Program-made: the position numbers and the translations under genes | The notes under the pieces: generated by a model | What the model was told of the DNA's origin: nothing | Databases searched by the model: none | Seen by the model: the letters and a program-made list of their open reading frames with translations, nothing else | NCBI GenBank assembly: GCA_022840695.1 | Contig: JALHDC010000001.1 | Location: 2,516 to 66,515, forward strand | Direction: 5' to 3' | Length of the DNA stretch: 64,000 nucleotides | DNA from: a bacterium | GTDB taxonomy: Bacteria; Patescibacteriota; Dojkabacteria; SC72 | Part shown: piece by piece, positions 3,450 through 57,674 of the stretch | How positions within the stretch are numbered: position 1 is the stretch's first letter | How the letters are laid out: the number at the start of each line of letters is the position of its first letter

Positions 3450-3451
3450 TT

Positions 3452-4669: not shown

Positions 4670-4688
4670 TAGATATATACTAGGTTAT

Positions 4689-12332: not shown

Positions 12333-12407
12333 TGGTTGCGGGGGTCGGACTCGAACCGACGACCTCCAGGTTATGAGCCTGACGAGCTTCCACTGCTCTA
12401 CCCCGCG
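12333..12407 (-). tRNA. Initiator tRNA-fMet (CAT), CCA encoded
   Basis: Revcomp CGCGGGGTAGAGCAGTGGAAGCTCGTCAGGCTCATAACCTGGAGGTCGTCGGTTCGAGTCCGACCCCCGCAACCA. C1xA72 mismatch, anticodon loop CTCATAA and strong similarity to the bacterial initiator consensus. Confidence 0.8.
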
Positions 12408-12446
12408 TTAAGAATAGTCTGATTATACTAGCAAAAACCCTTTTAT

Positions 12447-12893
12447 TCAAATACCGGTTAGGAGGAAATCTTTCCAAATATGATATCCCCCCTCCTCATT
12501 GTTTTCTTGATTCGTACCCAATATCATTTCCATATCCTTTTCTGACTCGTCTAAGACTGCTTCAGGAATTACAAATATATACTCTCTCTCTCCAGCAAAG
12601 TTCAGTCTATCTCTTGCTTGGATCTCCAAATATTCCTTACTTTGCATGGTATCTAACAGAAGTGCCAATTCTAAATTCTTTAATCTTAATTCATCTACCT
12701 CAGAACGGGCATTTTTTAATATATCTAATTTTTGAACAGTAATGTCCGCTGAGTGAATAACATTGTAGAGGAGAAAGGCTGATACAGAGAGAAGAATGAT
12801 TTTAGTTAAAAGATTGTCGAACAATTTCTTAAATGATGGACCCTGATCTTCCTGTTTTACTCTTGTCCCTTCTTTGTAAATAAATCTATCCAT
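12447..12893 (-). CDS. FtsB/DivIC-like septum formation initiator (TM plus coiled coil)
   Basis: Single TM (IILLSVSAFLLYNVI) followed by a coiled-coil region (LKNLELALLLDTMQSKEYLEIQARDRLNFAGEREYIFVIP) typical of the FtsB family. Confidence 0.5.
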   Translation of the reverse strand: MDRFIYKEGTRVKQEDQGPSFKKLFDNLLTKIILLSVSAFLLYNVIHSADITVQKLDILKNARSEVDELRLKNLELALLLDTMQSKEYLEIQARDRLNFAGEREYIFVIPEAVLDESEKDMEMILGTNQENNEEGGYHIWKDFLLTGI

Positions 12894-13024
12894 GTATAGA
12901 TATTAACAGTATGCAGATTTTAATTCAAAAGTCCTATATATTTTTATTATTGCTCTCTACCCCTCGTGGTGATATAATTTTTTCTATATACAGTAAAACT
13001 ATATAAAATTAGGAATATAGAAAA

Positions 13025-13912
13025 GTGAGCGGAATAAATAACCCAAATTTTGAGAAAAAAGCCCATGCATTTATAGAAGATTTAAAGTCAAAAGGTCGCT
13101 CTGAATCAACAGTTATTGCATACTCCAAAGATATAGAACAGTTAGTAAACTTTTTCTCCAAAGAGGGACTCGCTTCTATGGATGATGTTGCGATTGAACA
13201 TTTAGAAAAATATAAACAAAATCTACAGGATAATAACTACACCCCAAAGAGTATTTCAAGAAAAATAAATAGTACAAGAACATTCTTTAGATTTCTTTTA
13301 GAAAATTCATTAATTAAAGATAATCCTTCAGAAAAGTTGGCTCATCCTAAGTTTGAAACAAAACCTCCAAGAATCTTAACAGAGATGGAGTACAGGGCAT
13401 TGAGAGATGTTAGTAGGGTCGATGTTAGGCTTTACTCTATTGTAGAAATTTTGTTACAAACAGGGATTAGGATTGGTGAATTAGCAGGGCTTTCTTTAGA
13501 CGATGTAAGGCAATCAAAAGATGGGAAAATTGATTTTCTATATATCAAGGCTGCAGGCAGTCATCCTGCAAGGAAGGTTCCTTTGAATAAATCAGCAAAA
13601 AAAGCTATAGATGATTATATAGAGGTAAGGCCAGAAACAGAGGACGAGACATTATTTGTAACTAAGAATGGTAGACCATTATTGGTTAGAAATATAAGAA
13701 CAGCTATAGATAAGGCATTTGAGAAGGCACAGATTAAGAATGCAAAGGTTAATGATTTAAGAAATACCTTCATCGCTCATCACCTATCAAATGGTGTAAG
13801 TTTGGTTACAGTTTCAAAACTTGTTGGACATAAAAGATTATCTACTACAGAGAAATATTTAAATCTTGTTAAGATTCAAGCTGAAGATCAGAAGAGCTTA
13901 GGAGAGCTGTAA
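13025..13912 (+). CDS. Tyrosine site-specific recombinase, XerC/XerD family
   Basis: 295 aa; C-terminal catalytic region with H-x-x-R and Tyr (VGHKRLSTTEKYLNL); N-terminal core-binding domain. Probably the housekeeping chromosome-dimer resolvase, but it ends 98 nt from the 3' end of tRNA-Ile. Confidence 0.8.
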   Translation: MSGINNPNFEKKAHAFIEDLKSKGRSESTVIAYSKDIEQLVNFFSKEGLASMDDVAIEHLEKYKQNLQDNNYTPKSISRKINSTRTFFRFLLENSLIKDNPSEKLAHPKFETKPPRILTEMEYRALRDVSRVDVRLYSIVEILLQTGIRIGELAGLSLDDVRQSKDGKIDFLYIKAAGSHPARKVPLNKSAKKAIDDYIEVRPETEDETLFVTKNGRPLLVRNIRTAIDKAFEKAQIKNAKVNDLRNTFIAHHLSNGVSLVTVSKLVGHKRLSTTEKYLNLVKIQAEDQKSLGEL

Positions 13913-14009
13913 TTGATAAATATCCGATAGAATATTAAATTTCTTTGTAAATTTCGCTATAGTCATTGGTATACTAACATTTCTCAACTCACTAAAGGTC
14001 TGGAGGGTG

Positions 14010-14083
14010 TGGGAATAGGTGGACTCGAACCACCGACCACGGCTTTATAAGAACCGCGCTCTAACCACCTGAGCTATATTCCC
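14010..14083 (-). tRNA. tRNA-Ile (anticodon TAT/UAU)
   Basis: Revcomp GGGAATATAGCTCAGGTGGTTAGAGCGCGGTTCTTATAAAGCCGTGGTCGGTGGTTCGAGTCCACCTATTCCCA. Anticodon stem CGGTT/AGCCG, loop CTTATAA. No encoded CCA. Confidence 0.65.
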
Positions 14084-14117
14084 ATAACTAGATGATTCTA
14101 CCAAAATGTAATGAAAT

Positions 14118-16646
14118 TTAGAAGCCCATTGGAGGAAATCCTTGCGAAGGTTGTTCCACTTTCTCCTCTACCTTATCCAATTGAGATCTTACCCTTATAT
14201 CATCATTTACTACATTTAAATCTCTTCCATACTTTCTTCTTGATATTTCTTTCACTATATTTGCAACTTCTTTGTTTACAGGAAGATCAAATCCAGAATC
14301 TGGGTACTGTGGACCGTATAGAGTGTTAAGTGAGAAAGGAGAAGGATATATGCCATTGTTTAGAAGTTTAACATATGCATGTCCCATTCCTTGGTTAACG
14401 ATATCCATTGAACTGATATACGATTCAAATTGTGTCTCCAAAAATTCCGCATCTTCAGCACTGCATCTGAATATGAATAGCGATCCTACATTTCCAAATA
14501 CTGCATTTCTTATATCTTCTGGTAATTGCCCAATATATTGGTGAGCTAATGTAAGGTTTAATCTATACTTTCTTGCTTCTGAGAGTATAGAATTAAATTC
14601 TTCTGTAGCAAAGTTTTGGAATTCATCGGCATAGAAGAAGAAGTCTTTTCTTTCTTTTTCGTCCATATCTTCTCTACTTAGGGCAGCAGCTAACATTTTT
14701 TGGACCAAGAGTAGACCTAAGAACGACATATTTTCTTCCCCTAATCTACCTTTTGAAAGGTTAACTATTAAAATCTTGCCTGAGTCCATAACTTCTCTGA
14801 AATCGAAAGATGATTGTGATTGTCCAATTATATTTCTAATGGCTAAGTTTGTAGTGAATTTGTCAAACTTAGATATAAAATATGTAAGAGCTTCTGATTT
14901 TGTCTTTTTGTCTGTTTTAGCTACCTGATCTGTCCAATATCTACGAACCAGTTCATCCTGTATCAAGGGTAACCAATGACTCATAACCCAATCTTCATCC
15001 TGGAGTATTCTTACAACCTCTATTAAAGTAGAGTCCTTTTTAGACATAGCGGTAAGCATAGAGTTCCTTACAGCCTGTTGGAATGCTGGTCCTGCATATC
15101 CTTGGTTATGTGGATCAAAGAGACGGATGAGGAGAGCTATGAAGCTGTTCACTATTTGATGCTTATGCTGTTCATTGTAATACTCCATGATATTGATACC
15201 AAATGGTCTTTCAAAATCTCCAGCATCAAAATATATTACATCTTCTGCCCTATCCGCAGGAATTCTCTCTAATATCATTTCTGCAGCTTGTCCGTGTGGA
15301 TCTATGAAGCAGACACCATCTCCATTATGAATATCCTGAAGTATCATTCTAACCATGAGCCATGATTTACCTGTACCTGTTTGTCCAAGTATATATGAAT
15401 GTCTTCTTCTGTCATCCCTCTTAAAACAGATAGCTTTCTTTTTTCCCCTAAAGTAGTTATTCCCTACCCATATTGTATCTTTCGAATTTATATCCGAGCT
15501 TATCTCGTTACTTGCAATCAGTTCTTTTGAGAGTAACCAGTTAACATTGGGAGTAGAGATATCTTTATTTGGGAAGTGATACAGAGCTGCTAGCTCCTCA
15601 AGGTTTAAAACTGTTTTTTCATCTTCGGGTGTTCTTCTGTATATTACATCATATACAAATTTCTTTTCTTCATTTTTGGAAATTTTTCTTTTTTTCAACC
15701 TATTAACACCTGGATTACTGTATTGGTCAAAAGCCCCGATAATATTGTCTAAATGCATTTTTGCAATTCCTTTATCTGGAGCACTAGTGATTATACGAAT
15801 TTCAGCCATAAGACCCGGTTTGGAAACCTTTTTACTAATTGCCTGCAACTTCTCTTGAGAGACATTTATTCTCTTCTTTTCAGGATCTGAATTATTACTT
15901 TCAACTTTCTGCACAAACTTTTCACCATTTTTCTGCCAACTTGAATCTGTAGGAGCAATGACTATCTGTACCAAAGCTCCTTCGTCTTCAGACATTTTAC
16001 TCAAGGTACTAAGTACATTTGCCATTGGGTCTCCAGTGAAATTTTCAGCCACCCTTATTGGACAGTACGAATCTTCATCTAGACCTAATTTTGCATAAGC
16101 AATTTCAGATTTAGGTGCGAATATATTGTACTGTTTGACTATTGCTACATCAGCATCTTGGTATGATCCTAATATTTGTTTTTCAACCAAATCAGCAAGT
16201 TTTCTAGGACAATGAACAAAGAATCTGATTTCTCCAGGAAGTCCTACTATTTCAAAACTAACACTATTGTTTACACTGAATTTCTCTGCAAGACCTTCCC
16301 CTTTTCCTCCTATTCCATAGAGATTGGCAAACATTTTCTCAGCAACTCCCAACTCTACTTCATTATTTCTCGGGACTCTAACTTCCATTAATACCCCATC
16401 CATAGCTTTTTCATCTCTATCCTTCTTTTTTAATTTTTTCTGTATATACAGAAATCCAACGACTAAACCTCCTACCAAGAGAAGAAAAAATATTATCCAG
16501 CCGTATGGAATATTACGAGTTGCTTGATTGTATAAATCACCGTATGTATCTTTAGGATATTCAACATTAGAACCAGTCTCTATTTCTGGTATTTCTTTTG
16601 GTACAGGACCAATTAATTGTGAATATGTAAATTCCCCCGGATTCAT
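14118..16646 (-). CDS. Type IV secretion-type ATPase, VirB4/VirD4 (TraC/TrwB) superfamily, with N-terminal TM anchor
   Basis: 842 aa. TM IPYGWIIFFLLLVGGLVVGFLYI. Walker A ILGQTGTGKS followed by CFIDPHGQ (compare TrwB GATGTGKS...IVDPNGD). Walker B FFFYADEFQNF. Arginine finger/Q motif EARKYRLNLTLAHQ (compare VirB4 RKxN...ATQ). Walker A lies near residue 430 of 842, proportions like VirB4. Confidence 0.65.
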   Translation of the reverse strand: MNPGEFTYSQLIGPVPKEIPEIETGSNVEYPKDTYGDLYNQATRNIPYGWIIFFLLLVGGLVVGFLYIQKKLKKKDRDEKAMDGVLMEVRVPRNNEVELGVAEKMFANLYGIGGKGEGLAEKFSVNNSVSFEIVGLPGEIRFFVHCPRKLADLVEKQILGSYQDADVAIVKQYNIFAPKSEIAYAKLGLDEDSYCPIRVAENFTGDPMANVLSTLSKMSEDEGALVQIVIAPTDSSWQKNGEKFVQKVESNNSDPEKKRINVSQEKLQAISKKVSKPGLMAEIRIITSAPDKGIAKMHLDNIIGAFDQYSNPGVNRLKKRKISKNEEKKFVYDVIYRRTPEDEKTVLNLEELAALYHFPNKDISTPNVNWLLSKELIASNEISSDINSKDTIWVGNNYFRGKKKAICFKRDDRRRHSYILGQTGTGKSWLMVRMILQDIHNGDGVCFIDPHGQAAEMILERIPADRAEDVIYFDAGDFERPFGINIMEYYNEQHKHQIVNSFIALLIRLFDPHNQGYAGPAFQQAVRNSMLTAMSKKDSTLIEVVRILQDEDWVMSHWLPLIQDELVRRYWTDQVAKTDKKTKSEALTYFISKFDKFTTNLAIRNIIGQSQSSFDFREVMDSGKILIVNLSKGRLGEENMSFLGLLLVQKMLAAALSREDMDEKERKDFFFYADEFQNFATEEFNSILSEARKYRLNLTLAHQYIGQLPEDIRNAVFGNVGSLFIFRCSAEDAEFLETQFESYISSMDIVNQGMGHAYVKLLNNGIYPSPFSLNTLYGPQYPDSGFDLPVNKEVANIVKEISRRKYGRDLNVVNDDIRVRSQLDKVEEKVEQPSQGFPPMGF

Positions 16647-16708
16647 AGTAGGACAGTAGAATCTTATGATTAAAGAATATCACACAGGGATATATATATC
16701 AAAGAAAA

Positions 16709-16999
16709 CTAGAGTGGCTCGTTACCATTCATATAGTCAACAAGTGCCTCCAAAGCAACATTGTATTTTGTTTCATCGGTGGCATCTATTACAGGAAATC
16801 CTACACCCAAATCTAGGTATTTAACTTTGTCAGTATTTGGTAAAGCTTTTTCTACAAGCTCTACTCTTTCCGGTGTGATTGGAGATGTGTCGTTTGAAGG
16901 AATTTCTACTACCGGGCTTTCGACAACAGGAGTAACTCCTACTGGCAATATCTCAGGAGTAATATTTGATTGTTCTATACTAGGTGTCATATTATTCAT
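16709..16999 (-). CDS. Hypothetical Pro/Val-rich small protein upstream of the T4SS-type ATPase
   Basis: 96-aa ORF co-oriented with and immediately upstream of the ATPase gene; low-complexity N-terminus; no recognisable motif. Confidence 0.3.
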   Translation of the reverse strand: MNNMTPSIEQSNITPEILPVGVTPVVESPVVEIPSNDTSPITPERVELVEKALPNTDKVKYLDLGVGFPVIDATDETKYNVALEALVDYMNGNEPL

Positions 17000-17027
17000 A
17001 ACCTATAATATTATATCATAAACACCT

Positions 17028-17471
17028 TTATCTTTCATACTTTCTCTTCTCGTACAGCAGTTCTCTTTCCAAATCTCTCTCCTTCTCAACTCTCTTCTTT
17101 TCATAGTTCTTCTTCCCCTTACCAAACCCAACCTCTACCTTAACCTTGCCTCTTGTAGTATACACACTGACAGGAATTAATGTAAGATTTTTCTGTTTTA
17201 ATTTTGCATCTATCTGTACAAGCTCTTTTCCTGTTACTAACAATTTTCTAGATTTTTTAGAATCATAATTCATGCTGCCATCAAATTGATATTTAGGGAT
17301 ATCTCCATTTACAAGCCATAACTCTCCCCCAACTATCTTTACATATGCATCAGACAGATTAATTCTTCCAGATTTTATTGATTTAACCTCAGCTCCTGTT
17401 AATATGATACCGGCTTCAAATGTATCTAAAATTTCGTAATTGAAAAGTGCTTTTTTATTCTTTATTTTCAT
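17028..17471 (-). CDS. smpB: SsrA-binding protein SmpB
   Basis: ALFNYEILDTFEAGIILTGAEVKSIK...GRVKVEVGFGKGKKNYEKKRVEKERDLERE matches the SmpB family throughout, including the basic C-terminal tail. Confidence 0.9.
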   Translation of the reverse strand: MKIKNKKALFNYEILDTFEAGIILTGAEVKSIKSGRINLSDAYVKIVGGELWLVNGDIPKYQFDGSMNYDSKKSRKLLVTGKELVQIDAKLKQKNLTLIPVSVYTTRGKVKVEVGFGKGKKNYEKKRVEKERDLERELLYEKRKYER

Positions 17472-17483
17472 GCGAGTATTATA

Positions 17484-19760
17484 CTACAAACCAAGCTTCC
17501 AGATTACTGAACCATCAAGTATATATATATTCTTTTCAGAGAAATCCACAACAAAATTTCTTACATCAGAAAGAACCGAATCCTTCTCTCCTCTGTAGAC
17601 ATACTGGAAAAGAAGAAGTATTTGGTTAGGATGCCTACTATCTACCCCTGATTCTATTGGTTTTTCAAATCTAAGAAATCTTCTCCCTTCAGAATCAAAC
17701 AGATACAAACCAGAATCTAATGTATCTCCTGTAAAAGCCTTACTCAAGTTTCCATAATTTCCATCAAATCCTAAAACACTCAAAGGAGCTTCGTTATACT
17801 GATTTTCATAGAAACTGTAGTTAAATCTCAAAAGGTGTGGCTCTTCAGAAATTGTTACATAGATACTAAGATCGGCTATTAAATCCGTTGATTTTTCAAA
17901 TCTATCATCAACAATATATGCATAGGTCAGACCATATCTATCACCATATGCCGAGGTTGATTTTAACAAAGCCTTTCTATCTTTAGACATGAAATAGATA
18001 TTGTCACTCGTAGTCCAAGCAACCATCTCTGTAATTTCTGCTGACTTAATATCATTAACACCCAAACCAGATAGCTGAATAAATGGGGAAAACCATCCTT
18101 CCTCGTTAAAGGCTGCTTTCAACATCCCCTGCTTTTCATCATATACATACACTCCGTTAACACCAACATATACCTGTGAAGGAGAAGTAACTAAGCCATC
18201 ATTATCTGGAAGAGTCTTAACACTTTTATCATACAAAGAAACTCTATGCACAGCTTTTCTCCCTTTATCTGCAACAAACAAATATTCATTACCATAACTA
18301 TCTAAGGATATAGCTAAATCAACAATATCGGAGCCCTCTCCAAATGATAATCTACTATCAAGATAGTTAACCATTGTTCCTCCCTCTACAAACCCTACTC
18401 TCTTGTAAAGAGAATCACCCACCTCCAAAACCCTCTCTCTTAAGGTGTGAAATTTCTCAGTATCCTCATCATTCAATTCCCCAGTTATTTCTGACAATTT
18501 CTTCTCTGCTTGGAATAGGTATGTCTCAGCAGAAGAGCTATCCGTTACAAAACTATTTTCACTTTTACTCAGTAATTCTTCAATTTGAACAAACGATTCA
18601 TTAGCTAATTTACTAATTTCTTTCGATTTCTTAGCTTTAACTGTGAAATTAATACCAAGAAGAATCAATGTCAAAATAATTAAAAACATGAAGAGAAGTT
18701 TAAATCTCTTTCCACGAAGATCCCTGACTTTGTAATCATCTATTCGCATTCCTGCTACACCAACTGGTTTTCTTCTTCCAACCCTAACCTCCGAGAATTT
18801 AGAAGCAACTCTTTTGTACCATCTCTTCTTGCCTAAGTTCTCTACAATATTTTCCGAAAGGGAGTTCCAAATATTTTTGAAGGAAGCCACAACTTTGCCC
18901 CAAAATGGTTCCACCTTCCCCCATATTCTATTGAAAATTTTTTTAACCTTAGAGAATTTTGAACTCAAATCTAATTTTTCCTTAAAATCAACAAGAACTC
19001 TTTGCTCCTGAGGTTTCTTAATCTTCTCTACTCTAGCAATAGGTTTTAACAAATTTTGAGCACTTTCTTTAACAGCATTAACTGAATCCTTGATAGTAGT
19101 TCTTTCACTTACAATCTTCTTCTGTCGCTCTTCTTTACTAAAATACAATAAAGCTTTTGTACCTTCTAAAGAACTACCAATAGCATTTAACATCTTTACG
19201 AAATCTTCTTTCTTCTTTAACACTTCCAATCTAGAGACATAGTTATTCAATATATCTGAAGAAGAAACCATTAGTAGGTCCCCTTCCTCAAGAACAACTC
19301 CTGCTGTATTTGCTTTTTTCTCTTCAAGAACTTTACCAATATCTACAAAAGAACCTTTCTTAAATGTAAATATGTCGTTCTCTCCAAAGATTCCAACATA
19401 TACTCCCTCCTCCTTTACCAAAACAATTGTAAAACTGATATCTACCCCAATCTCTTCTAATTCAATATCGTTAGCAATTAGGTCTTTTACCTTTTTGACA
19501 CCAGAGGATATTGAATCTTTCAAAGATTCGTTTGTTGTAGATGCATTGGAATACAGATATCCATCAATAATACTGTCCCAGACAAATTTTGATATTCTTT
19601 CGGATTTTACACTTTTCTCCGAAGATATTTTTAATAATGCATATATATCACCCTTTTTATCTACCTTTTTTTCTGTACTATTAAAAAAATGCCTGAATAC
19701 CTTTATAAAGGAATTACTATCCTTACTATTGGATACATATTGTTGAGCAGTTATTTCCAT
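17484..19760 (-). CDS. Bitopic membrane protein: cytoplasmic degenerate PP2C-like domain, one TM, large extracytoplasmic beta-rich domain
   Basis: 758 aa. Central TM FKLLFMFLIILTLILLGINF. The N-terminal region resembles PP2C/SpoIIE folds (GVYVGIFGENDIFTF...VVLEEGDLLMVSSSDIL) but lacks the metal-binding Asp residues. The C-terminal ~390 aa is Gly/Tyr/Asp-rich and repeat-like (possible propeller). Domain calls are tentative. Confidence 0.55.
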   Translation of the reverse strand: MEITAQQYVSNSKDSNSFIKVFRHFFNSTEKKVDKKGDIYALLKISSEKSVKSERISKFVWDSIIDGYLYSNASTTNESLKDSISSGVKKVKDLIANDIELEEIGVDISFTIVLVKEEGVYVGIFGENDIFTFKKGSFVDIGKVLEEKKANTAGVVLEEGDLLMVSSSDILNNYVSRLEVLKKKEDFVKMLNAIGSSLEGTKALLYFSKEERQKKIVSERTTIKDSVNAVKESAQNLLKPIARVEKIKKPQEQRVLVDFKEKLDLSSKFSKVKKIFNRIWGKVEPFWGKVVASFKNIWNSLSENIVENLGKKRWYKRVASKFSEVRVGRRKPVGVAGMRIDDYKVRDLRGKRFKLLFMFLIILTLILLGINFTVKAKKSKEISKLANESFVQIEELLSKSENSFVTDSSSAETYLFQAEKKLSEITGELNDEDTEKFHTLRERVLEVGDSLYKRVGFVEGGTMVNYLDSRLSFGEGSDIVDLAISLDSYGNEYLFVADKGRKAVHRVSLYDKSVKTLPDNDGLVTSPSQVYVGVNGVYVYDEKQGMLKAAFNEEGWFSPFIQLSGLGVNDIKSAEITEMVAWTTSDNIYFMSKDRKALLKSTSAYGDRYGLTYAYIVDDRFEKSTDLIADLSIYVTISEEPHLLRFNYSFYENQYNEAPLSVLGFDGNYGNLSKAFTGDTLDSGLYLFDSEGRRFLRFEKPIESGVDSRHPNQILLLFQYVYRGEKDSVLSDVRNFVVDFSEKNIYILDGSVIWKLGL

Positions 19761-20820: not shown

Positions 20821-20843
20821 GGGGACAGAGGAGGGTCTGACCC
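20821..20843. repeat. 23-nt GC-rich motif GGGGACAGAGGAGGGTCTGACCC (copy 1), palindromic core GGGTCnGACCC
   Basis: Identical except for the central nucleotide to 57652..57674. Both copies sit in GC-rich intergenic DNA and are each preceded 75-145 nt upstream by a degenerate AGGGTCnG...GGTC element. Copy 1 abuts the stop codon of the SpoIID-domain gene. Confidence 0.6.
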
Positions 20844-37433: not shown

Positions 37434-37441
37434 AGTTTTAA

Positions 37442-37530
37442 CGGAGGGAGAGGGATTCGAACCCCCGGTCCTACGATTGTAAGACAGAGCTTTTCGAGAG
37501 CTCCCCTTTCGACCACTCAGGCATCCCTCC
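37442..37530 (-). tRNA. tRNA-Ser (CGA), class II
   Basis: Revcomp GGAGGGATGCCTGAGTGGTCGAAAGGGGAGCTCTCGAAAAGCTC...GGGGGTTCGAATCCCTCTCCCTCCG. Anticodon stem GAGCT/AGCTC, loop CTCGAAA. Confidence 0.85.
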
Positions 37531-44866: not shown

Positions 44867-46303
44867 ATGCAAAGAAAATTTATCAATAAAGAAAGAGTAT
44901 TTATTATTACTGTTTTCTTTCTTTCTTCCATATGTCTTTCTATTCTATTTCAAGAATCTTTGTATAAATCATTGTTCCTCCTGCTAACTATTTTAATCTG
45001 GGGAGTATCCACTTTTTATACAAAAAGTATTTCTCTTTCCTCTTTTCTGTATATATTATTTGTTCTTCCATTCAATGTTACCTTACAACTCCCCCACTCT
45101 GTTCATATCGTTGGTACAGAGGTTTTGTTATCTACTCCATTCGTCTCAGGAATTTATGTTAATTACTTAGTCCCTACGGTTTCAATCCTAGATATTGCGG
45201 TTTTGCTTTTTCTGGCTTCTGCTATAGTGGAAAATGGTATTTCTGTTTATTGGAGACTATTAAAAAATTGGAAAAATGGAGTTTTAATTTTTTTAATTAT
45301 ATTAATTGCCCAAGCTTTAATGCTTAGTAGTTTCCTCTCGCTGTTTAACTCTATCCGATTATTTTTATATATCCTTTTTGTCATAACGATAGTAGTAGAG
45401 TTTAAAAAGAAATTTTCTCCTAAAACATATTCCTCTGTTCTTTTAATCTTCCTTTCTAATACTATTGTTCAAGGAGTAAGTAGTATGATTCAATTTACCA
45501 GAGGATCTTCATTGGGTATGAATTTTATCGGAGAATCACAGGTTGTAACTGGTATGCAGGGATCTAGTTTTTTAGAGTTGGGAGGACAATTATTTCTAAG
45601 GGGGTATGGCACATTCCCTCACCCTAATTTATTAGCCGGATACGTTCTTTTAAGTATACTTGTTGGAATTCTATTCTTTGAGAGACAGAAAATATTATCA
45701 ACTATTTTAATTATATTTTCCTTTATTGTTCTACTTTTTACCTTTTCAAGGGTATCAATACTTCTTGCTGGAATATTTTTCTTAGCTATTTTTATGAAAA
45801 AGATTATAAGTAAAAAATATATACTTAGTTCTTTCGTTCCCACTCTGCTATTTGAAAGATTTATGAATCTGTTCAATAACGGAGATAGTGGTTTGAATGA
45901 CAGGATATTACTTCTAAAGAAGAGTTTTGAATCATTGAAAGATAATTGGTTCTTAGGAGTGGGAGTTGGGAACTTTGTTAAATCTATGGAAAAGATGATT
46001 CCTAGGACTGCAAGGGGAATACCATTATTACAACCAGTTCACAACATTTTTATTCTTGCTATTTCTGAATTAGGATCAATTGGTTTCCTATCTTTTGTAT
46101 ATGTACTCTTTTACTTTTGTATATCTAGTATTAAGAGATGGAATTTAATAAAGAGTCTAGTAGTTCTCTATATTTTAATCATAGGAAGTTTTGATCACTA
46201 TCTTTTCTCTCTTCCTCAAGGATTAATGATATTCTCACTTCTTTTGATAATTCTCTGTTTAGATCATCTGTACGATGATAAAGAGGATATAAAGAAGAAT
46301 TAA
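44867..46303 (+). CDS. O-antigen ligase/Wzy_C-family polytopic membrane protein (possible O-oligosaccharyltransferase)
   Basis: About 12 TM helices. Loop with FTFSRVSILLAGIF...NDRILLLKKSFESLKDNWFLGVGVGNF...PVHNIFILAISELGSIGFL resembles the Wzy_C/WaaL/PglL signature (R...G.G.G.F...H.N...E.G). Confidence 0.45.
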   Translation: MQRKFINKERVFIITVFFLSSICLSILFQESLYKSLFLLLTILIWGVSTFYTKSISLSSFLYILFVLPFNVTLQLPHSVHIVGTEVLLSTPFVSGIYVNYLVPTVSILDIAVLLFLASAIVENGISVYWRLLKNWKNGVLIFLIILIAQALMLSSFLSLFNSIRLFLYILFVITIVVEFKKKFSPKTYSSVLLIFLSNTIVQGVSSMIQFTRGSSLGMNFIGESQVVTGMQGSSFLELGGQLFLRGYGTFPHPNLLAGYVLLSILVGILFFERQKILSTILIIFSFIVLLFTFSRVSILLAGIFFLAIFMKKIISKKYILSSFVPTLLFERFMNLFNNGDSGLNDRILLLKKSFESLKDNWFLGVGVGNFVKSMEKMIPRTARGIPLLQPVHNIFILAISELGSIGFLSFVYVLFYFCISSIKRWNLIKSLVVLYILIIGSFDHYLFSLPQGLMIFSLLLIILCLDHLYDDKEDIKKN

Positions 46304-47167
46304 GCCTATCCCCTCCTTTTTACTTATATAATACTTCTTTCCTAGTATCGCAAAAAGTATAAATATAACAGTTGCAAAGATGAGGAAAAGGAATTCCTCC
46401 ATGAAAGGCTTGAAATCAAGAGTTGTTATAAAAGAGGAGATACTTGTAACAAGAAGAATATCAAATATTGTAGAACCTAATATATTCCCCAACCCTATTT
46501 GTAGATTTCCCTTCTTTATTATTGCCAGTGAGGTTATTAACTCTGGTATAGATGTCCCTATAGCTAATATGAAGTATCCCACGGTTGTTTTTGCTAATCC
46601 ATAGCTTTCTGCAAAAAGTACAATATTATCTACACAAATCTTTCCAGAAAATATTAATAACCCAAAGGAAACCAAAAGGATTAATACATTAAATCTCGTC
46701 TTACTTGCTATTGTAATAGTATGGTTGTTATGTTTGGCAAGGTATATAGCAATGATTAATAAAATTACTGCTACTATTCCAATAATCCAATTCATTTTAA
46801 ATCCGAAGAGTAGGATAATGAGGAAGAATGATGAAAACATTATTAAGTTTGTGGGAATATTTCTCTTTATATCTATTTCGGATAGTTTATAGTTAGAAAA
46901 TAGTGCTAATATTCCTAATATCAATGATGATTTAACTATTGCGCTTCCTAATATTGTAGATATTGCAATTTCTGGGTGTCCAGTCATGGTTGAATATGTA
47001 CTTATCACCAGATCAGGCAGAGAAGTCCCTAGTGCTATGAGAGTAAAACCTATTAAAAAGCTACTAATCCTTATTTTTTTAGCTAATGCTATAGATTGCT
47101 CTATGAAGATCTCTGCAGACTTAATAAGAAAGAGTAACGAGAGTATTGCGAGTAAAATTTGAGGCAT
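46259..47167 (-). CDS. CaCA-family cation/Ca2+ antiporter (YrbG-like)
   Basis: Two alpha-repeat motifs GTSLPDLVISTYS and GTSIPELITSLAI; ~10 TM helices. Confidence 0.75.
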   Translation of the reverse strand: MPQILLAILSLLFLIKSAEIFIEQSIALAKKIRISSFLIGFTLIALGTSLPDLVISTYSTMTGHPEIAISTILGSAIVKSSLILGILALFSNYKLSEIDIKRNIPTNLIMFSSFFLIILLFGFKMNWIIGIVAVILLIIAIYLAKHNNHTITIASKTRFNVLILLVSFGLLIFSGKICVDNIVLFAESYGLAKTTVGYFILAIGTSIPELITSLAIIKKGNLQIGLGNILGSTIFDILLVTSISSFITTLDFKPFMEEFLFLIFATVIFILFAILGKKYYISKKEGIGLILLYILFIIVQMI

Positions 47168-47236
47168 ACTATTTTAAGAATGAATTATCCTTATGAATAG
47201 TACCATATATTAGGTATTTGTAGAAGTTTTTATGGG

Positions 47237-47254
47237 AACGGAGAGAGAGGGATT
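47237..47254. repeat. 18-nt exact direct repeat of the 3' end of tRNA-Ser(GGA) (AACGGAGAGAGAGGGATT), att-like
   Basis: Identical to 48031..48048 (discriminator, acceptor 3' strand and part of the T stem of the tRNA at 48033..48119). The two copies bracket only the ClpP-like gene. Confidence 0.5.
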
Positions 47255-47271
47255 TCTCAAAATGATTCTTT

Positions 47272-47955
47272 TTATATAACTTCATCAATAAATCCCATTT
47301 GAAGTGCTTGTTCAGATGTTAGATATGTTCCAACACCCATGTTTGCTTTCATTAAATCTTGAACACTTTCAGGAGTCATATCCTTTCCTGCTTTATTAAC
47401 CCTGTCCGCAACTATTTCCGAATATAATGTATATAGGGCTCGAGATTCTGCAATTTGGTGTTCTATTCTGTCGACTTCTCCCTCAACATATGTACTTATA
47501 GGATGGAAAAGCATTCTTGAATTTTCTGGCATCTGTCTAATATCGCCTGCCTGTATAATAAGAGCTCCCATCGACATTATCGGTCCATATCCTGTGATTG
47601 TTATTGGAACATTATGCTTTCGGGAGAACACTCTTAAAAGATCGTGAACTCCAAAGCCTGAATTCACAGAACCTCCAAAAGAGGAGAAATTAACCTGAAG
47701 GTGACTGAGGTCATTCTCATCATTTTCTATCTTGTATAAATCTGTGCTTACCTGTTTAAACATCTCTTGGTCTACTCTTCCATTGACAGTAATCTGGGGT
47801 TCTTGCCTGCGTAACCTTTCTGGAGAAATAATCCCATCGTATCTTTCATAAAATCCTTTTGGAACTTCTTGGCTCTTTCCAATCTCCTTTATTGCATCAC
47901 CGGATAAAGATGTTTGTCTATCTATGTACTTTGGGTAATCTTCTTGTCCTGTCAT
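47272..47955 (-). CDS. ClpP-family (S14) serine protease-like protein with N-terminal extension
   Basis: NFSSFGGSVNSGFGVHDLL...ITGYGPIMSMGALII...SRMLFHPIS aligns to the ClpP active-site regions (Ser in MSMG, His in FHP). No clpX adjacent. Lies inside the tRNA-Ser direct repeats, so a phage prohead-protease-type origin is possible. Confidence 0.7.
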   Translation of the reverse strand: MTGQEDYPKYIDRQTSLSGDAIKEIGKSQEVPKGFYERYDGIISPERLRRQEPQITVNGRVDQEMFKQVSTDLYKIENDENDLSHLQVNFSSFGGSVNSGFGVHDLLRVFSRKHNVPITITGYGPIMSMGALIIQAGDIRQMPENSRMLFHPISTYVEGEVDRIEHQIAESRALYTLYSEIVADRVNKAGKDMTPESVQDLMKANMGVGTYLTSEQALQMGFIDEVI

Positions 47956-48032
47956 AAAAGAATATTAACAGTAATATAAATAAATAACAAGATAATCAGA
48001 TAGTAGTTGTTTTTCAAGAAATTAGGCCGAAA

Positions 48033-48119
48033 CGGAGAGAGAGGGATTCGAACCCTCGGTATGATTTCTCATACGCACGCTCTCCAAGCGTGTCCTTTCG
48101 ACCACTCAGGCATCTCTCC
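48033..48119 (-). tRNA. tRNA-Ser (GGA), class II
   Basis: Revcomp GGAGAGATGCCTGAGTGGTCGAAAGGACACGCTTGGAGAGCGTG...CGAGGGTTCGAATCCCTCTCTCTCCG. Anticodon stem CACGC/GCGTG, loop TTGGAGA. Confidence 0.85.
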
Positions 48120-48183: not shown

Positions 48184-48906
48184 ATGAAAGATTTTCCTAA
48201 AAAAATCTGGTTAATAGTCCTCTTCTTTTTATTACTATCCCTTTCGATCAATCTACTAAAAGAAAATCATGAAAAAGAGGAAGTACTCGGAATAAATAAT
48301 AAAAATATTGAGGAGGTAGTAATAGAAGAAAGCCTTAATATTGCAAAAGCACAGCTAGATATATCTAATAAAAGTGTAGAAAAGAATGAAGTCTATGTCC
48401 CCTACTATTGGAAGAATGGTTTAAATGTTGATTCTAAAGATTATTTATTAGGATATATTCCTTCTATTAATAGTTTTTATGAGTATTATGTATCTAAAAA
48501 TAAGATACTATTAGGAGTTAATCCTCGAAAATATGATTATGATATGGAAGAGGTAATGAATGTCGTAGATAATCGAGAGATGATATTTTCAAATGGTATT
48601 TTGAATGAAAGTCAGTATTTTCAGTGGGAAGAAAATTTATGTGATTCTTTCAGGTTGGATTCTGTAGGGAAGAAAATTTTTACCTGTTTAAACTGGTTGA
48701 ATTGGAGTGGAATTGAATTATCTAAGAAAAGTTTTGTATTAACAGATTGTAGTATAGAAGATACTGATGGATATTGCTTATTTGAGGAGTATAGTGAGAT
48801 ATACTATGATAGTAAGAAGTTAGGAGAAAAAAGGTGTTTCCAGAATGAGAATGAAGAATATCTTTGTGATTATGATGAGTATGTTAAACAAATAGAATAT
48901 AATTAA
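48184..48906 (+). CDS. Secreted/membrane-anchored Cys-containing protein, unknown function (240 aa)
   Basis: N-terminal hydrophobic segment IWLIVLFFLLLSLSINLL; eight Cys in the C-terminal half; first gene of a three-gene plus-strand block between two minus-strand tRNAs. Confidence 0.5.
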   Translation: MKDFPKKIWLIVLFFLLLSLSINLLKENHEKEEVLGINNKNIEEVVIEESLNIAKAQLDISNKSVEKNEVYVPYYWKNGLNVDSKDYLLGYIPSINSFYEYYVSKNKILLGVNPRKYDYDMEEVMNVVDNREMIFSNGILNESQYFQWEENLCDSFRLDSVGKKIFTCLNWLNWSGIELSKKSFVLTDCSIEDTDGYCLFEEYSEIYYDSKKLGEKRCFQNENEEYLCDYDEYVKQIEYN

Positions 48907-48923
48907 ATTTATTTACTGCCTTA

Positions 48924-50678
48924 ATGAGATTTATTAAATCATTTATATTTTCACTCTTTCTCATAATACTTCTCCCCTCCACCATTCTTGCCAGAGAGAT
49001 TATTAGAGAGGAAGACGGAGAAAGATGCATAGATTTGGAAGCTGCTTATGCAGATATTAATGATTCGAGTAAGGCATTGACAGGGCAGGATAATAGTGTT
49101 GATGCGGTTAAGAGAGTAAATACCGTAGCTTCTCTGACTAATATTATGTCAATCTTAATAGGAGATAGTATTTACTGTGTGAACGATGAAGCTTCTGTAT
49201 CGAATATCGGGGGATCAGATGACAATGGGCTTATTGGACAGTTATTAAATGCAAATTCACAAATGATTGCTTCGTTCCCGACAGTCAATGTCGGGCAACA
49301 CCTTGCCGAGGAGTTTATCCCTGGTTATCGCGACAATGTAGGAATTTTTGCATTGGGGATAGGAGATTATGAAGAAGATGATCTTGATAAAGAGGAAAGG
49401 AAGGGACAAAAAAGAATAAAGCAAATACAAGAGAAGGTGACAGATCCCTTACAAGAGCAATTTTTAGAAGATGCTAACCAAATTATTGAAGAGAGTGAAA
49501 ATTTGGAAAGTGTAGATACTTCAAACCCTGTTACAAATTCTGGTTATAACTATTTAAAGGATAATTTACATCTTGATGAGATTTGGGGTACTTTTAGAAA
49601 TATTGCCTACCTGGGATATGTAATTATTATTATTATTGTTGGTTTCATGATCATGTTCCGGAAGAATCTTCCTGGGCAAATCGTTGTATCGTTGGGAAAT
49701 ACAATCCCCCAGATTATATTCGGGCTCATTTTAGTAACATTTAGTTTCGCCATTGTTGGAATAGTTATGGATGTAGGTAAAACATCAATGAAAGTGATAG
49801 GTTCTATGTTTGTATCTGTGTATAAAGAGGAAGATCCTACTGTAACGGAGGAAGATTTGGTAGGAGTTGAAGATATTGGTTCCTTAACCGATGAAGCCTT
49901 AATAACTGCTAAACAGGACGGTTTTATAGTCTCTAATCTAAGAAAGCTGCCATTGATAGGCGAGAATTTAGCTGATTCATATTCTGGAACTGCCGGAACA
50001 GTTAAGAAAATTGTTGGACAATCAGTTGGTATATTTACATTAACTGCATTAGCAGATGTGATGACTAAGAATATTCAAAATATGCATTTTGATGTAAATA
50101 TTTTGGGGGTTGATTTGGTTTTGGATATCGCTGCGGAGACAATAAAGAGCATTATAACCCTTCCTCTGAATGCGATAAAAGTTGGTTTAACAACCTTTCT
50201 TATTAGAAACATATTACTTCTCCTAGTTTGTCTATATGCTTCTTTTAAATTGTTCATTACGATGTTAATGACATATCTTAAATTATTCATCAATGTCATA
50301 TTTGGCCCTATTCAGATAATGTTAGGTTCTCTTCCTGGAAATTTCTCTTCAACAACAAAATGGTTTAAATCCGTTATTGCAAATGTATTCACATTTGTAG
50401 GAATATACTTAGTTATAAATGTATTTGCATTCATATCTTCTGCAGTTGATCCTGCTCAATTCAATTTTTTTGGAAATAAAGGAGTATTTTGGCCAGATTG
50501 GATAGTCTCTTTAGAGGGAGTTATTTTAATAGCAGGCTATCTATTTGCAGCTAATATGCCAACAATAATTAATGGTGCACTAAAGATAGAGCAAAGTAAG
50601 GAGATGTCTATGGTTGGCCAATCAGTACAGAAGGCTGCAGGAAAAATACCTTTTATAGGTGGAATGTTTAATGGTTAG
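48924..50678 (+). CDS. Large polytopic membrane protein with signal peptide and ~200-aa extracytoplasmic domain (possible VirB6/TrbL-like)
   Basis: 584 aa. Cleavable-looking signal (FIFSLFLIILLPSTILA), then an acidic ectodomain, then at least 6 TM helices (IAYLGYVIIIIIVGFMIMF; IIFGLILVTFSFAIVGIVM; LLLLVCLYASFKLFITMLMTYL; VFTFVGIYLVINVFAFI; VILIAGYLFAANMP). Architecture, not sequence identity, suggests VirB6/TrbL. Confidence 0.55.
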   Translation: MRFIKSFIFSLFLIILLPSTILAREIIREEDGERCIDLEAAYADINDSSKALTGQDNSVDAVKRVNTVASLTNIMSILIGDSIYCVNDEASVSNIGGSDDNGLIGQLLNANSQMIASFPTVNVGQHLAEEFIPGYRDNVGIFALGIGDYEEDDLDKEERKGQKRIKQIQEKVTDPLQEQFLEDANQIIEESENLESVDTSNPVTNSGYNYLKDNLHLDEIWGTFRNIAYLGYVIIIIIVGFMIMFRKNLPGQIVVSLGNTIPQIIFGLILVTFSFAIVGIVMDVGKTSMKVIGSMFVSVYKEEDPTVTEEDLVGVEDIGSLTDEALITAKQDGFIVSNLRKLPLIGENLADSYSGTAGTVKKIVGQSVGIFTLTALADVMTKNIQNMHFDVNILGVDLVLDIAAETIKSIITLPLNAIKVGLTTFLIRNILLLLVCLYASFKLFITMLMTYLKLFINVIFGPIQIMLGSLPGNFSSTTKWFKSVIANVFTFVGIYLVINVFAFISSAVDPAQFNFFGNKGVFWPDWIVSLEGVILIAGYLFAANMPTIINGALKIEQSKEMSMVGQSVQKAAGKIPFIGGMFNG

Positions 50679-50689
50679 AGGTAAATGCA

Positions 50690-52630
50690 ATGGATAAAAA
50701 AAACGATTTAAACATATATGATTCGATTTTTAGTTTCATATTTGATGCTCAAGAAAAGAAAAGAAATAAACCGTTTCCTAAAAATATTGATGGAATGTCC
50801 GATTATGCTTCTGCTTTAGTTGAAATAGGTACTCAACCACTACTCTATCCCTTAGAATCAGCATTTAAATCCATTAATAGTAGTGTTGCAAAAGCAACCT
50901 CCATAGATTTAGGTGGAGGTATTTCAGCTGGATTGGGATCTGGAGCCTTTATGAATCCATCAAAATATTCCAAATCAGAAGTATCTAAAAATAGGGCAAG
51001 AGCTAAGTGGGCTTCTATAGGGGGATCCCTACATTATGCAATCGATGGGGCATTAATATCTTTGTATGCGAAATCAAATGGAGCTTCTTCGAGAACGGCA
51101 TATGAGGCAGGTGATCTCTTCAAGGAACTTTTGAAAGAAGAAATATATTCAGGATATAAATACTCAAATCACCATATATTTGGATCCGATTCTTTATCAA
51201 AAAAGGAAATAGAGGAAAAATCTAAGTCGAAGAGAAATGATCAAATATTCGGATATCGTTCTAAGGAGGAAATATTAGGATCAGAAGAAGAATTTTTTAA
51301 TAGGGCTGTTCAATTAAGAGCCTCTACCCTATCAGGATTGAATCCAAAACTTTCGAAATCTTGGTTAATTGCAAATGTTAAGGATTTACAAAAGGAACCT
51401 TCTAAAAATGAAAGAATAAAAAAGACTGCACAATTACTTTCCTTGCAAGGTTTAGATATGAAAGAAGGTCTTAATGTCGGATATTCTCTTTGGGGAAGTG
51501 CTAAGACATCCGATTTAGGATTATTCAGAGTTGGAGATGAAGTATGGAAATCAAAAAAAGAAGAAATAAGTAGAAATTATAATTTAGATAGGCAAGATAT
51601 TGGGAAGATTGAATATTATAGAGAAATAGAAGATATTAAAGAGAGGGAGAAAGCAGTATATACTTTTTTGAAGAATGATAAAAATTTGGATCCCAAAATT
51701 GCTTTTAATATTGCAAAGGAAATATCCAATATTCAGGTAAATGATGGGAATACCATTGCAAAGAATTCTATATATTGGTCATTAGCAGCTGATATTACAG
51801 AAAAACTAAAAAAAGATGGTAATTATGTAGAAATACCAGAAGTTAAAAAAAGGGTAGAGTCAATCCTACAACCATCTTCTAAATCAACTTTGGGAATGAA
51901 ATTTGAGAGGGGAATACTTATAGGAAATTGGTTAGCAAATAGTGGTTCTTGGGGATCTATATTAGTTGATGGAAATTGGGAGAAATTTGGAGTTGAGGAT
52001 ATTAACTTTACTAAAATAGTTGAGCCTGTATCTGTTAAGAAAGATGGTGAAGAGATAGGAACTTATTACAAAGGGGCTAATTCTGTTATTGGTAGATTAT
52101 TAGGTGATTTTTATTATTTTCATCCCAATAATTTAATAAAGGGATTATTTATTGATGGGAGTCTTTGGCTTAAGTGGGCCTGTGATAAGCAAGGGAATCT
52201 AAATACTAAAAGTTTCGCATATTTGATGAGTCAATTGAGTCTTAATAATTCACTGTCTTTCTTAATGAAACCTTTTAGGGGACTGACAAACAATGTTATT
52301 AAGATAATCAATCCTTTTTTTGAAGGGACAAAGAGATTTTTGAAAGGATTTTTTACCAAAATGTTAGGAGCTACTGGAATTGGTGGAATTTTGGTTAATC
52401 TTTTGATGAATGCAATCTCTGATAAATTTGCATATGTAATTAATCAAATTGTTATGGTTGTAGTATTAGGAGCAATAGGGATAGTATTTGTGATATTTGA
52501 TGCCTCTGGAGTAATGTATTCAGATGAGCCAATTAATACAGTAAAAGGGAAGGAGGATACCCAAGAGAATATTAATAACGAGAAGATATTTACTGATGAT
52601 GATTTTTTTGTAGATACTAGTGATAATTAA
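50690..52630 (+). CDS. Large protein with C-terminal TM helices, unknown function (646 aa)
   Basis: Soluble Lys/Ser/Gly-rich N-terminal 540 aa, then two or three TM helices (MLGATGIGGILVNLLMNAI; VINQIVMVVVLGAIGIVFVIF) and an acidic tail. Confidence 0.5.
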   Translation: MDKKNDLNIYDSIFSFIFDAQEKKRNKPFPKNIDGMSDYASALVEIGTQPLLYPLESAFKSINSSVAKATSIDLGGGISAGLGSGAFMNPSKYSKSEVSKNRARAKWASIGGSLHYAIDGALISLYAKSNGASSRTAYEAGDLFKELLKEEIYSGYKYSNHHIFGSDSLSKKEIEEKSKSKRNDQIFGYRSKEEILGSEEEFFNRAVQLRASTLSGLNPKLSKSWLIANVKDLQKEPSKNERIKKTAQLLSLQGLDMKEGLNVGYSLWGSAKTSDLGLFRVGDEVWKSKKEEISRNYNLDRQDIGKIEYYREIEDIKEREKAVYTFLKNDKNLDPKIAFNIAKEISNIQVNDGNTIAKNSIYWSLAADITEKLKKDGNYVEIPEVKKRVESILQPSSKSTLGMKFERGILIGNWLANSGSWGSILVDGNWEKFGVEDINFTKIVEPVSVKKDGEEIGTYYKGANSVIGRLLGDFYYFHPNNLIKGLFIDGSLWLKWACDKQGNLNTKSFAYLMSQLSLNNSLSFLMKPFRGLTNNVIKIINPFFEGTKRFLKGFFTKMLGATGIGGILVNLLMNAISDKFAYVINQIVMVVVLGAIGIVFVIFDASGVMYSDEPINTVKGKEDTQENINNEKIFTDDDFFVDTSDN

Positions 52631-57463: not shown

Positions 57464-57651
57464 CTTTTATCTAATTATATTATCTATACCCTCTTCAAAC
57501 CATTATACAGGTTTCGAAGAAGATCTGTTTTGGGAAGGGGAAATCTTTAAGATATGTATATTCTATCACAGAGATCGTTATATGACCAGGGTCGGACGAG
57601 GGTCAGGCCTCCTCCTTCCGTAGGGTTGTGCTACCAAAGCTTTTGGAAAAG

Positions 57652-57674
57652 GGGGACAGAGGAGGGTCAGACCC
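57652..57674. repeat. 23-nt GC-rich motif GGGGACAGAGGAGGGTCAGACCC (copy 2)
   Basis: Matches 20821..20843 except for the central nucleotide; lies in the rnj/valS divergent intergenic region; preceded by CAGGGTCGGACGAGGGTCAGGCC and followed by CCCCAAAGGGG. Confidence 0.6.

Follow-up and report, generated by a model that had tools for sequence, protein, structure and literature searches.

A Probable Minimal, Integrase-Less Single-Gene Integrative Cassette at a tRNA-Ser(GGA) Gene of a Dojkabacteria Genome

The chromosomal attachment sites (attB) of genomic-island and prophage integrases commonly start in the T-loop of a tRNA gene and extend to its end, and direct repeats of 15–25 bp are part of this layout (bioRxiv 10.1101/2020.11.02.365908). 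Island surveys use minimum sizes of 2.5–3.5 kb (bioRxiv 10.1101/2020.11.02.365908). Cis-mobilizable elements (CIMEs) are remnants of integrative and conjugative or integrative and mobilizable elements that remain flanked by attachment (att) sites and have no integration and transfer genes (PMC5704250). Here, we analyze a 64-kb window of contig JALHDC010000001.1 (assembly GCA_022840695.1; GC content ~33%), whose relatives are metagenome-assembled genomes of Candidatus Dojkabacteria in the Candidate Phyla Radiation (CPR). In this window, to which all unlabeled coordinates refer, a 794-bp indel carrying one gene for a ClpP-like protease separates tRNA-Ser(GGA) from a CaCA antiporter gene. We consider it probable that this indel is a minimal, integrase-less, single-gene integrative cassette at the tRNA-Ser(GGA) att site that has recently spread or re-integrated across strains.

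The locus shares with tRNA-integrated islands and prophages an intact tRNA, a direct repeat of the tRNA 3′ end that bounds the insert, variable presence, and a virgin empty site; the length of the repeat and its start in the T-loop are also typical (bioRxiv 10.1101/2020.11.02.365908). It differs from them in being only 0.8 kb long, in holding one gene and no integrase, and in its native composition. Because of the minimum sizes used in surveys, elements like this cassette are filtered out. As in CIMEs, attL and attR are kept, recombination and transfer genes are missing, and movement would rely on an outside recombinase. Unlike CIMEs, the cassette shows no pseudogenes or other signs of decay, has no tandem helper, resides in a CPR host, and carries a single conserved, apparently functional gene with a promoter-like site. 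Integron gene cassettes likewise measure ~0.8 kb, hold one ORF (open reading frame) and no recombinase of their own, and insert site-specifically, but the cassette described here has no structured site of the attC kind (fold z = −0.11), is inserted at a tRNA gene and not at attI beside intI, and brings its own promoter-like site. The best description of the element combines the anatomy of a CIME with the size of an integron cassette, in a CPR genome.

Read along the minus strand, the locus consists of tRNA-Ser(GGA), a 77-nucleotide (nt) leader, the ClpP-like gene, 17 nt, an 18-mer repeat, a 69-nt leader, the CaCA gene, and a convergent Wzy-like gene (Table 1). An earlier, sequence-only reading had described an exact 18-nt direct repeat that comprises the final 16 nt of the tRNA and 2 trailer nucleotides, and this description holds. 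The 18-mer AACGGAGAGAGAGGGATT occurs in two copies without mismatches in the 64-kb window, and ARAGORN and Rfam agree on the placement of the tRNA. Copy 1 runs from the T-loop (AATCC) through the 3′ strand of the acceptor stem and the discriminator G to the TT trailer. Within the window, the 18-mer is not a dispersed repeat: the only further near matches are the 3′ ends of tRNA-Ser(CGA), with one mismatch (17/18, at 37440–37457), and of tRNA-Ser(GCT), with three, where shuffles yield an expectation of 0.09 matches at up to three mismatches. The sole ORF of at least 50 amino acids (aa) between the copies is the ClpP-like gene, again as the sequence-only reading had it, and the list of ORFs between the repeats contains no recombinase. 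The attL junction contains CTCTCTCCGTTTCGGCC and the attR junction contains TTTTGAGAAATCCCTCTCTCTCCGTTCC; attB consists of the tRNA followed by TTCCTATAG or TTCCCAT, and the predicted circular attP contains CATTTTGAGAAATCCCTCTCTCTCCGTTTCGGCCTAATTTC.

Other features of the cassette ends were also considered. Judged by eye, the window and contigs L021 and L023 have the TTG-containing −35-like hexamer of the cassette leader about equally far from the tRNA end. Repeat copy 2 shows no significant secondary structure (fold z = −0.11), and a consensus scan found no terminator-like site there; an RNA or DNA structure or a terminator role for this copy was ruled out on these grounds. Terminal inverted repeats of the cassette were rejected as well, the best pair (9/11, 47252–47262 with 48012–48022) being one among 24 chance-level pairs.

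The identity of the two repeat copies is confined to 18 nt. Similarity of their flanks is no better than in shuffles (left 60 nt, p = 0.58; right 100 nt, p = 0.78), and such a sharp edge is expected of an att core and not of a decayed duplicate tRNA; we rejected both a decayed duplicate and a segmental duplication on this basis. In a variant of this idea, copy 2 would be the relic of a tandem second tRNA-Ser between the ClpP-like and CaCA genes whose 5′ part has since been deleted. The tRNA-Ser isoacceptors do share their 3′ end, with tRNA-Ser(CGA) matching at 17 of 18 positions, and the ClpP-like gene of contig L008 abuts a tRNA-Ser(CGA). We nonetheless regard such a relic as very unlikely, given the absence of leftover similarity upstream of the 18 nt (p = 0.58), the extension of the identity into 2 nt of the tRNA-Ser(GGA) trailer, the precise joining of empty sites at the repeat, and the lack of a full second tRNA in any relative.

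Contigs of the same species, recovered through a look-up of the CaCA protein, are of two kinds, occupied and empty. Twelve are occupied by the ClpP-like gene and repeat next to CaCA (the window, L029, and ten further Logan contigs). Three contigs from as many European Nucleotide Archive assemblies (L030, L032, and L033) are empty, with a single copy of the 18-mer: tRNA-Ser(GGA) leads straight into TTcctatagaaacttctac and then CaCA. Their CaCA protein is 99.7–100% identical to that of the window, their tRNA-Ser(GGA) is identical, and their TTcctatagaaacttctac trailer equals the sequence that follows repeat copy 2 in the window. In a BLAST comparison, the left part of L030 aligns with window positions 49482–48031 and its right part with 47254–44000, and the two alignments overlap by exactly the 18-mer. 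This defines a clean 794-bp indel bounded by the repeat, made up of 776 bp of unique DNA and one 18-bp repeat. In a different species (L028; CaCA 75.5% identical), tRNA-Ser(GGA) is also followed by CaCA and a convergent Wzy gene and the site is likewise empty; neighbors on the other side match those of the window (proteins of 241, 585, and 739 aa, then tRNA-Arg(TCT)). The empty arrangement that the sequence-only reading had proposed to look for, tRNA-Ser directly followed by CaCA, thus exists both within the species and in a related one, and together with the geometry it supports the proposal of a scar of site-specific integration at a tRNA. An interim idea that CaCA is the inserted gene, based on L021 and L053, in which the tRNA, the ClpP-like gene, and a convergent Wzy gene occur without CaCA, was dropped since the same-species empty sites have the tRNA followed by CaCA.

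The same contigs bear on whether the repeat could be a coincidence. Two unrelated exact 17-mers arise by chance elsewhere in this AT-rich window, so that repeat length alone is weak evidence, and the empty-site contigs have a coverage of only 3–4x, according to their record names. A chance repeat or an assembly artifact is still highly improbable, because the repeat coincides with the end of a tRNA and the empty site appears in independent contigs. The locus is occupied in 12 independent contigs and empty in three as well as in another species, and 18 nt is shorter than the k-mers of assemblers and cannot cause collapse.

The sequence of the repeat points to a recent origin. The T-stem of tRNA-Ser(GGA) reads GAGGG/CCCTC in the window species and GTGGG/CCCAC in the orthologous tRNAs of L021/L022, L023/L024, L027, and L028. 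The tree of ClpP-like proteins has the order (window,(P0002,(P0003,P0004))), followed by P0007 (from L027), which together with CCCAC in the relatives indicates that CCCTC is the derived state. Repeat copy 2 bears the derived T, and the repeat was therefore formed or renewed recently. A neutral relic that predates the species split would have become imperfect and would not have followed the tRNA through a compensatory base change, which again argues for a young repeat.

Diversity among strains is close to zero within the cassette. Over the cassette-specific 776 bp (47255–48030), the window shows 0/776 differences from L029, L043, and L051, and the ClpP-like ORF varies by 0–2 nt among the 12 contigs, which derive from at least 10 sequencing runs. 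The locus is present in runs SRR29340345, SRR27710307, SRR18493545/47, SRR27676577/86, and SRR31593243-52 and in the reads behind ERZ724080-84, and examples of runs with the cassette are SRR29340345, SRR27676577, and SRR18493547. Flanking genes, in contrast, differ by 1–4% between strains. For L029, we counted 79 differences over 4326 flanking positions (rnpA 4, yidD 3, yidC 16, jag 8, Wzy 38, CaCA 7, leader 3); the same rate predicts ~14 differences for the cassette, which has none. Synonymous divergence is 0–0.007 in the ClpP-like gene (144 synonymous sites). It amounts to 0.03–0.15 in CaCA, yidC, and jag; by lineage, the flanking values are 0.03–0.09 for L029 and 0.12–0.18 for the empty-site lineage and for the CaCA genes of L020 and L049, two comparisons affected by possible strain mosaicism of contigs built at k = 31.

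The identical cassette and repeat are joined to three leader haplotypes, whose first differences lie at the third position past the repeat: H1 (cccataaaaac) in the window, L043, and L046; H2 (cccattgaaac) in eight contigs; and H3 (cctatagaaac) in L049 and in all three empty sites. The first 7 nt of the leader after copy 2 (47230–47236) are unusually polymorphic, with variable sites 3, 6, and 7, beside a fully invariant cassette. A tract of zero diversity that ends at the repeat on several backgrounds argues for site-specific recombination, since homologous recombination would leave tracts with scattered ends. The start of seven occupied Logan contigs falls at window 48059–48061, within 1 nt of the cut expected if an assembly graph at k = 31 forks where copy 1 has its distal edge, which by inference only suggests that occupied and empty alleles co-occur in those samples.

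Comparison across species bears on the history of the locus. The orthologous locus has the order u240 (divergent), tRNA-Ser(GGA), X, and then Wzy, jag, and yidC in the convergent orientation, with three states of X: CaCA in L028 and the empty-site strains; the ClpP-like gene, the repeat, and CaCA in the window lineage; and the ClpP-like gene only in L021/L053 and probably L023. A tRNA 3′ end also lies upstream of the ClpP-like gene in L027, and three species besides that of the window have the gene after the orthologous tRNA-Ser(GGA). Distances among the window species, L028, and L053 are roughly equal (yidC 76–78%, jag 71–77%, and Wzy 47–50% identity). To judge from these sequences, the ClpP-like gene has probably been tied to the tRNA-Ser(GGA) locus since before the split of these species. 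In more distant genomes, the gene is not beside any tRNA, except in L034, where a 74-nt tRNA, a length unlike that of tRNA-Ser, lies ~190 nt downstream.

Two arrangements in relatives deserve mention in their own right. In L008 (2334–3111), 2 nt separate the stop codon of the ClpP-like gene from the tRNA 3′ end of a convergent tRNA-Ser(CGA) gene, and no flanking repeat was found; the region is otherwise syntenic with window 37.4–43.4 kb, where CutA1 holds the position of the ClpP-like gene. This is a second, differently oriented link of the family to a tRNA-Ser gene. In the sister species of L021 (144–265) and also L022, the orthologous tRNA-Ser(GGA) is 122 nt long, with an extra hairpin of ~35 nt in the variable arm (cgtcccgctatat...atatagcgggacc); Rfam assigns it 52 bits and ARAGORN misses it. 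L023/L024 have a normal 87-nt tRNA.

Several of these observations weigh against a recently mobile cassette. The ClpP-like proteins of the window and L053 are 74% identical, much like the core neighbors yidC (76%) and jag (71%), and from this core-like divergence and a native third-position GC the gene looks vertically inherited at the locus rather than recently imported. L021/L053, L023, and L027 have the tRNA followed by the ClpP-like gene without a second repeat. Neither an integrase nor a helper element nor a circular junction was seen, and the sole recombinase found in the window, a Xer-like protein, is encoded 34 kb away with nothing to tie it to the site. The Logan contigs (k = 31) may be strain mosaics: single k-mers support the link between the cassette flank and the first 12 nt of the leader, and linkage farther than ~12 nt from the repeat is not guaranteed. 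Finally, the empty sites could also stem from recombinase-independent deletion between the 18-bp repeats.

These points could be assembled into an alternative in which a single ancestral integration left an old scar that is now immobile, the empty sites arose through RecA-dependent recombination or replication slippage, and the low diversity reflects a gene-specific sweep by homologous recombination. Such passive processes would account for the ClpP-like gene lying after tRNA-Ser(GGA) in three further species, with a divergence like that of core genes, and for the absence of an integrase in or beside the cassette, and deletion between direct repeats would yield exactly the empty site seen. They fit poorly with the repeat itself, which is perfect and bears the lineage-derived T-stem base, whereas a neutral 18-bp relic of such age should have decayed. 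They also fit poorly with a zero-diversity tract that stops within 3 nt of the repeat on three leader haplotypes, as the end points of homologous recombination would be scattered. An 18-bp stretch is, moreover, short for RecA-mediated exchange. We therefore consider an old, immobile scar rather unlikely, even if it is the strongest competitor to an integrative cassette. The simplest reconciliation is that of an old, lineage-restricted cassette that in the window species still recombines at its att site, or did so very recently, and that in sister species became fixed after loss of the distal repeat.

In the mechanism that we favor for the cassette, a site-specific recombinase acting in trans, probably of the tyrosine type, would recombine the 18-bp cassette site with its exact counterpart at the 3′ end of the tRNA. 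Integration would rebuild an intact tRNA (attL) and leave the original 3′ end displaced beyond the cassette (attR), and the reverse reaction would restore the junction of tRNA and CaCA exactly. The cassette would bring its own promoter-like site and one cargo gene, encoding a predicted ClpP-fold serine peptidase of a small Dojkabacteria-specific family, and would have spread or re-integrated recently across strains within the species. The recombinase, a circular intermediate, and the direction of individual events are elements of this scheme that we infer.

Among the 37 larger window ORFs covered by our Pfam scan, the single recombinase is a Xer-like tyrosine recombinase of 295 aa (13025–13912), which best matches XerC, XerD, and XerA at 150–165 bits, below the curated cut-offs. 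Its gene belongs to a region (window 12333–19760) in which it lies between tRNA-Met and tRNA-Ile(TAT) and is followed by an ATPase gene resembling VirD4/T4SS-DNA_transf (14118–16646) and a gene for a 758-aa protein without a Pfam match. The arrangement may represent a conjugative or integrative module, around which a search gave no tRNA-derived direct repeat. In IMG/VR, the 18-mer matches 26 contigs, 24 in full tRNA-Ser genes and two in partial tRNA-Ser copies, which have GC contents of 0.35–0.57 and look unrelated. None of the 26 represents an attP on a Dojkabacteria-like contig, and a helper phage or attP in IMG/VR was rejected accordingly. No pseudogenes or element remnants are present in the 776 bp and no helper element lies in tandem, and no tRNA-derived repeats were found around ClpP-like genes in nine other loci.

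A bolder form of the proposal, which we offer tentatively, is that the 0.8-kb cassette, an autonomous-looking unit of promoter, peptidase gene, and 18-bp site, cycles in and out of the T-loop att site of tRNA-Ser(GGA) by means of a recombinase encoded elsewhere, possibly the single Xer-like enzyme of the host. It would then be a tRNA-targeted analogue of integron cassettes, with a domesticated phage-type head protease without the catalytic Asp as its cargo. To our knowledge, a cassette that cycles in this way would be smaller than the tRNA-integrated mobile elements described so far.

The cargo protein is an unusual member of the ClpP fold. It scores 64.8 bits with Pfam CLP_protease, and its best PHROG is phrog_94 (89 bits). 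All NCBIfam models of ClpP remain far below their cut-offs (housekeeping ClpP, TIGR00493, 38.8 vs 308.6 bits), and the model of ClpP-related head-maturation proteases, NF045542, yields 64 bits against a cut-off of 120. A phmmer query with E. coli ClpP, with its Ser, His, and Asp positions checked, fails to detect the protein. Its AlphaFold model (pLDDT 81) adopts a ClpP fold, with a target-normalized TM of ~0.8 to solved ClpPs, and is equally close to viral ClpP-like proteins. The N-terminal extension that the sequence-only reading had called atypical spans ~50 residues (PKGFY..DG..PERLR) and is conserved throughout the family, whose alignment contains 46 invariant columns. Ser128 and His151 are invariant; where S. 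aureus ClpP has its catalytic Asp172, the alignment shows an invariant Gly209, and the family thus departs from the Ser-His-Asp triad. Asn205 and Asp138 are also among the invariant or nearly invariant residues. The protein therefore shares with housekeeping ClpP the fold and the positions of the Ser and His motifs but not the profile score, the N-terminal region, or the catalytic Asp. No ClpX, ClpA, or ClpC was found among the scanned ORFs of the window, where FtsH alone turned up, in agreement with the earlier statement that a ClpX partner is missing.

The family is small, stand-alone, and restricted to Candidatus Dojkabacteria. A search of 1.84 billion cluster representatives returned 13 at E ≤ 1e-30, followed by a gap and then by a broad cloud that matches the protease core only. 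Scans of metagenomes and genomes for close relatives found only distant loci, at up to 64% identity, and we found no paper on a Dojkabacteria ClpP in the literature. Five of the ten nearest outgroup proteins pass NF045542, including four with lengths typical of protease–scaffold fusions (295–395 aa) and one two-domain protein of 438 aa, and none of the ten reaches the cut-off for housekeeping ClpP.

Such affinities raise the question of whether the locus is what remains of a prophage or phage-like element that has lost all but its prohead (head-maturation) protease, as the sequence-only reading had suggested. The family resembles phage head-maturation proteases (NF045542; PHROG 94) in its ClpP fold, in retaining Ser and His, in its best-scoring profiles (phrog_94, 89 bits; NF045542, 64 bits), and in its nearest outgroups, several of which pass the head-maturation model while none passes a housekeeping one; the att geometry is also the same as in prophages. 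The protein itself, however, falls short of the NF045542 cut-off (64 vs 120 bits), carries no scaffold or capsid fusion, and has its own N-terminal extension and a Gly at the Asp position. No family member was found in IMG/VR, and the best phage tblastn matches are ~31% identical over half of the protein. In annotated loci, homologues are single genes with cellular neighbors (methyltransferases and KsgA, a restriction-modification locus, and SpoU), and phage genes were never seen beside them. To judge from the N-terminal extension and the 46 invariant columns, the family has been under purifying selection for a cellular function. The gene also has a native-like composition, with a third-position GC of 0.281 (z = 0.64 vs 39 window ORFs), which led us to reject a foreign base composition, and the 776 bp contain no other phage gene or pseudogene. 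A decayed prophage is thus an unlikely source of the present arrangement. Of the earlier suggestion, remote descent of the family from phage head proteases remains plausible from the sequence comparisons, whereas the remnant part is not supported: the ClpP-like gene here behaves as a cellular gene under purifying selection rather than as the sole survivor of recent prophage decay.

Table 1. Coordinates of features at the tRNA-Ser(GGA) locus
Feature	Position	Strand	Evidence
tRNA-Ser(GGA), intact; 3′ part is the attL repeat copy	48033..48119	-	ARAGORN; Rfam tRNA 56.7 bits; identical in empty-site strains
Direct repeat copy 1 (attL core)	48031..48048	.	Exact 18-mer; left and right alignments of empty-site contigs overlap on just these 18 nt
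Cassette leader with promoter-like site TTGAAA-17 nt-TATCTT at 48017..47989	47956..48030	-	Consensus scan; 100% identical among strains
ClpP-fold (MEROPS S14-like) protease gene, 227 aa	47272..47955	-	Pfam CLP_protease 64.8 bits
Spacer of 17 nt from ClpP-like stop codon to repeat copy 2; right end of cassette-specific DNA	47255..47271	-	Invariant in 12 contigs
Direct repeat copy 2 (attR core); displaced tRNA 3′ end with lineage-specific T-stem base (CCCTC)	47237..47254	.	Exact 18-mer; invariant in all occupied contigs
CaCA gene leader, native tRNA trailer in empty-site strains; three haplotypes	47168..47236	-	Strain comparison
CaCA (Na_Ca_ex) antiporter gene; conserved downstream context, outside cassette	46259..47167	-	Pfam 170.8 bits; adjoins tRNA in L028, L030, L032, L033

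The surroundings of the locus and the wider window show further features. Between tRNA-Ser(GGA) and tRNA-Arg(TCT), window 48184–52630 holds genes for proteins of 240, 584, and 646 aa without a Pfam or NCBIfam match, which are syntenic in L028 and fast-evolving (u240 41% and u584 62% identical). The Wzy-like gene that adjoins the locus is only 91% identical within the species, and the two regions together resemble a surface locus in rapid diversification. Three intergenic positions of this AT-rich window (20821–20843, 57588–57610, and 57652–57674) share the GC-rich motif GGGGACAGAGGAGGGTCWGACCC, whose end, GGGTC.GACCC, is palindromic. Adjacent paralogues at 1908–3449 and 3452–4669, which have no Pfam match, share 5′ ends that form a 90-nt direct repeat (92% identical; 3361–3450 and 4581–4670). 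In another Dojkabacteria species, the gene that lies downstream of the ClpP-like gene has a copy of a 75-nt repeat (72% identical) on either side (L011, 5699–5773 and 6566–6640; the same in L005), and the GGTCTTGTWGCAACC-like core of this repeat also occurs upstream of the ClpP-like gene in L001 (upstream of 6001). This repeat may be a small RNA or a regulatory element.

Mobile DNA in the CPR is poorly charted, and island-finding pipelines drop tRNA-adjacent insertions that are smaller than ~2.5–3.5 kb or have no integrase. The locus draws attention to a small, uncharacterized ClpP-fold family, with an N-terminal extension, no catalytic Asp, and no visible Clp ATPase, whose presence varies between strains. 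It also offers a defined 18-bp site and a few candidate recombinases. The population evidence gathered here indicates that a single-gene, integrase-less cassette can act as a mobile unit in a reduced genome.

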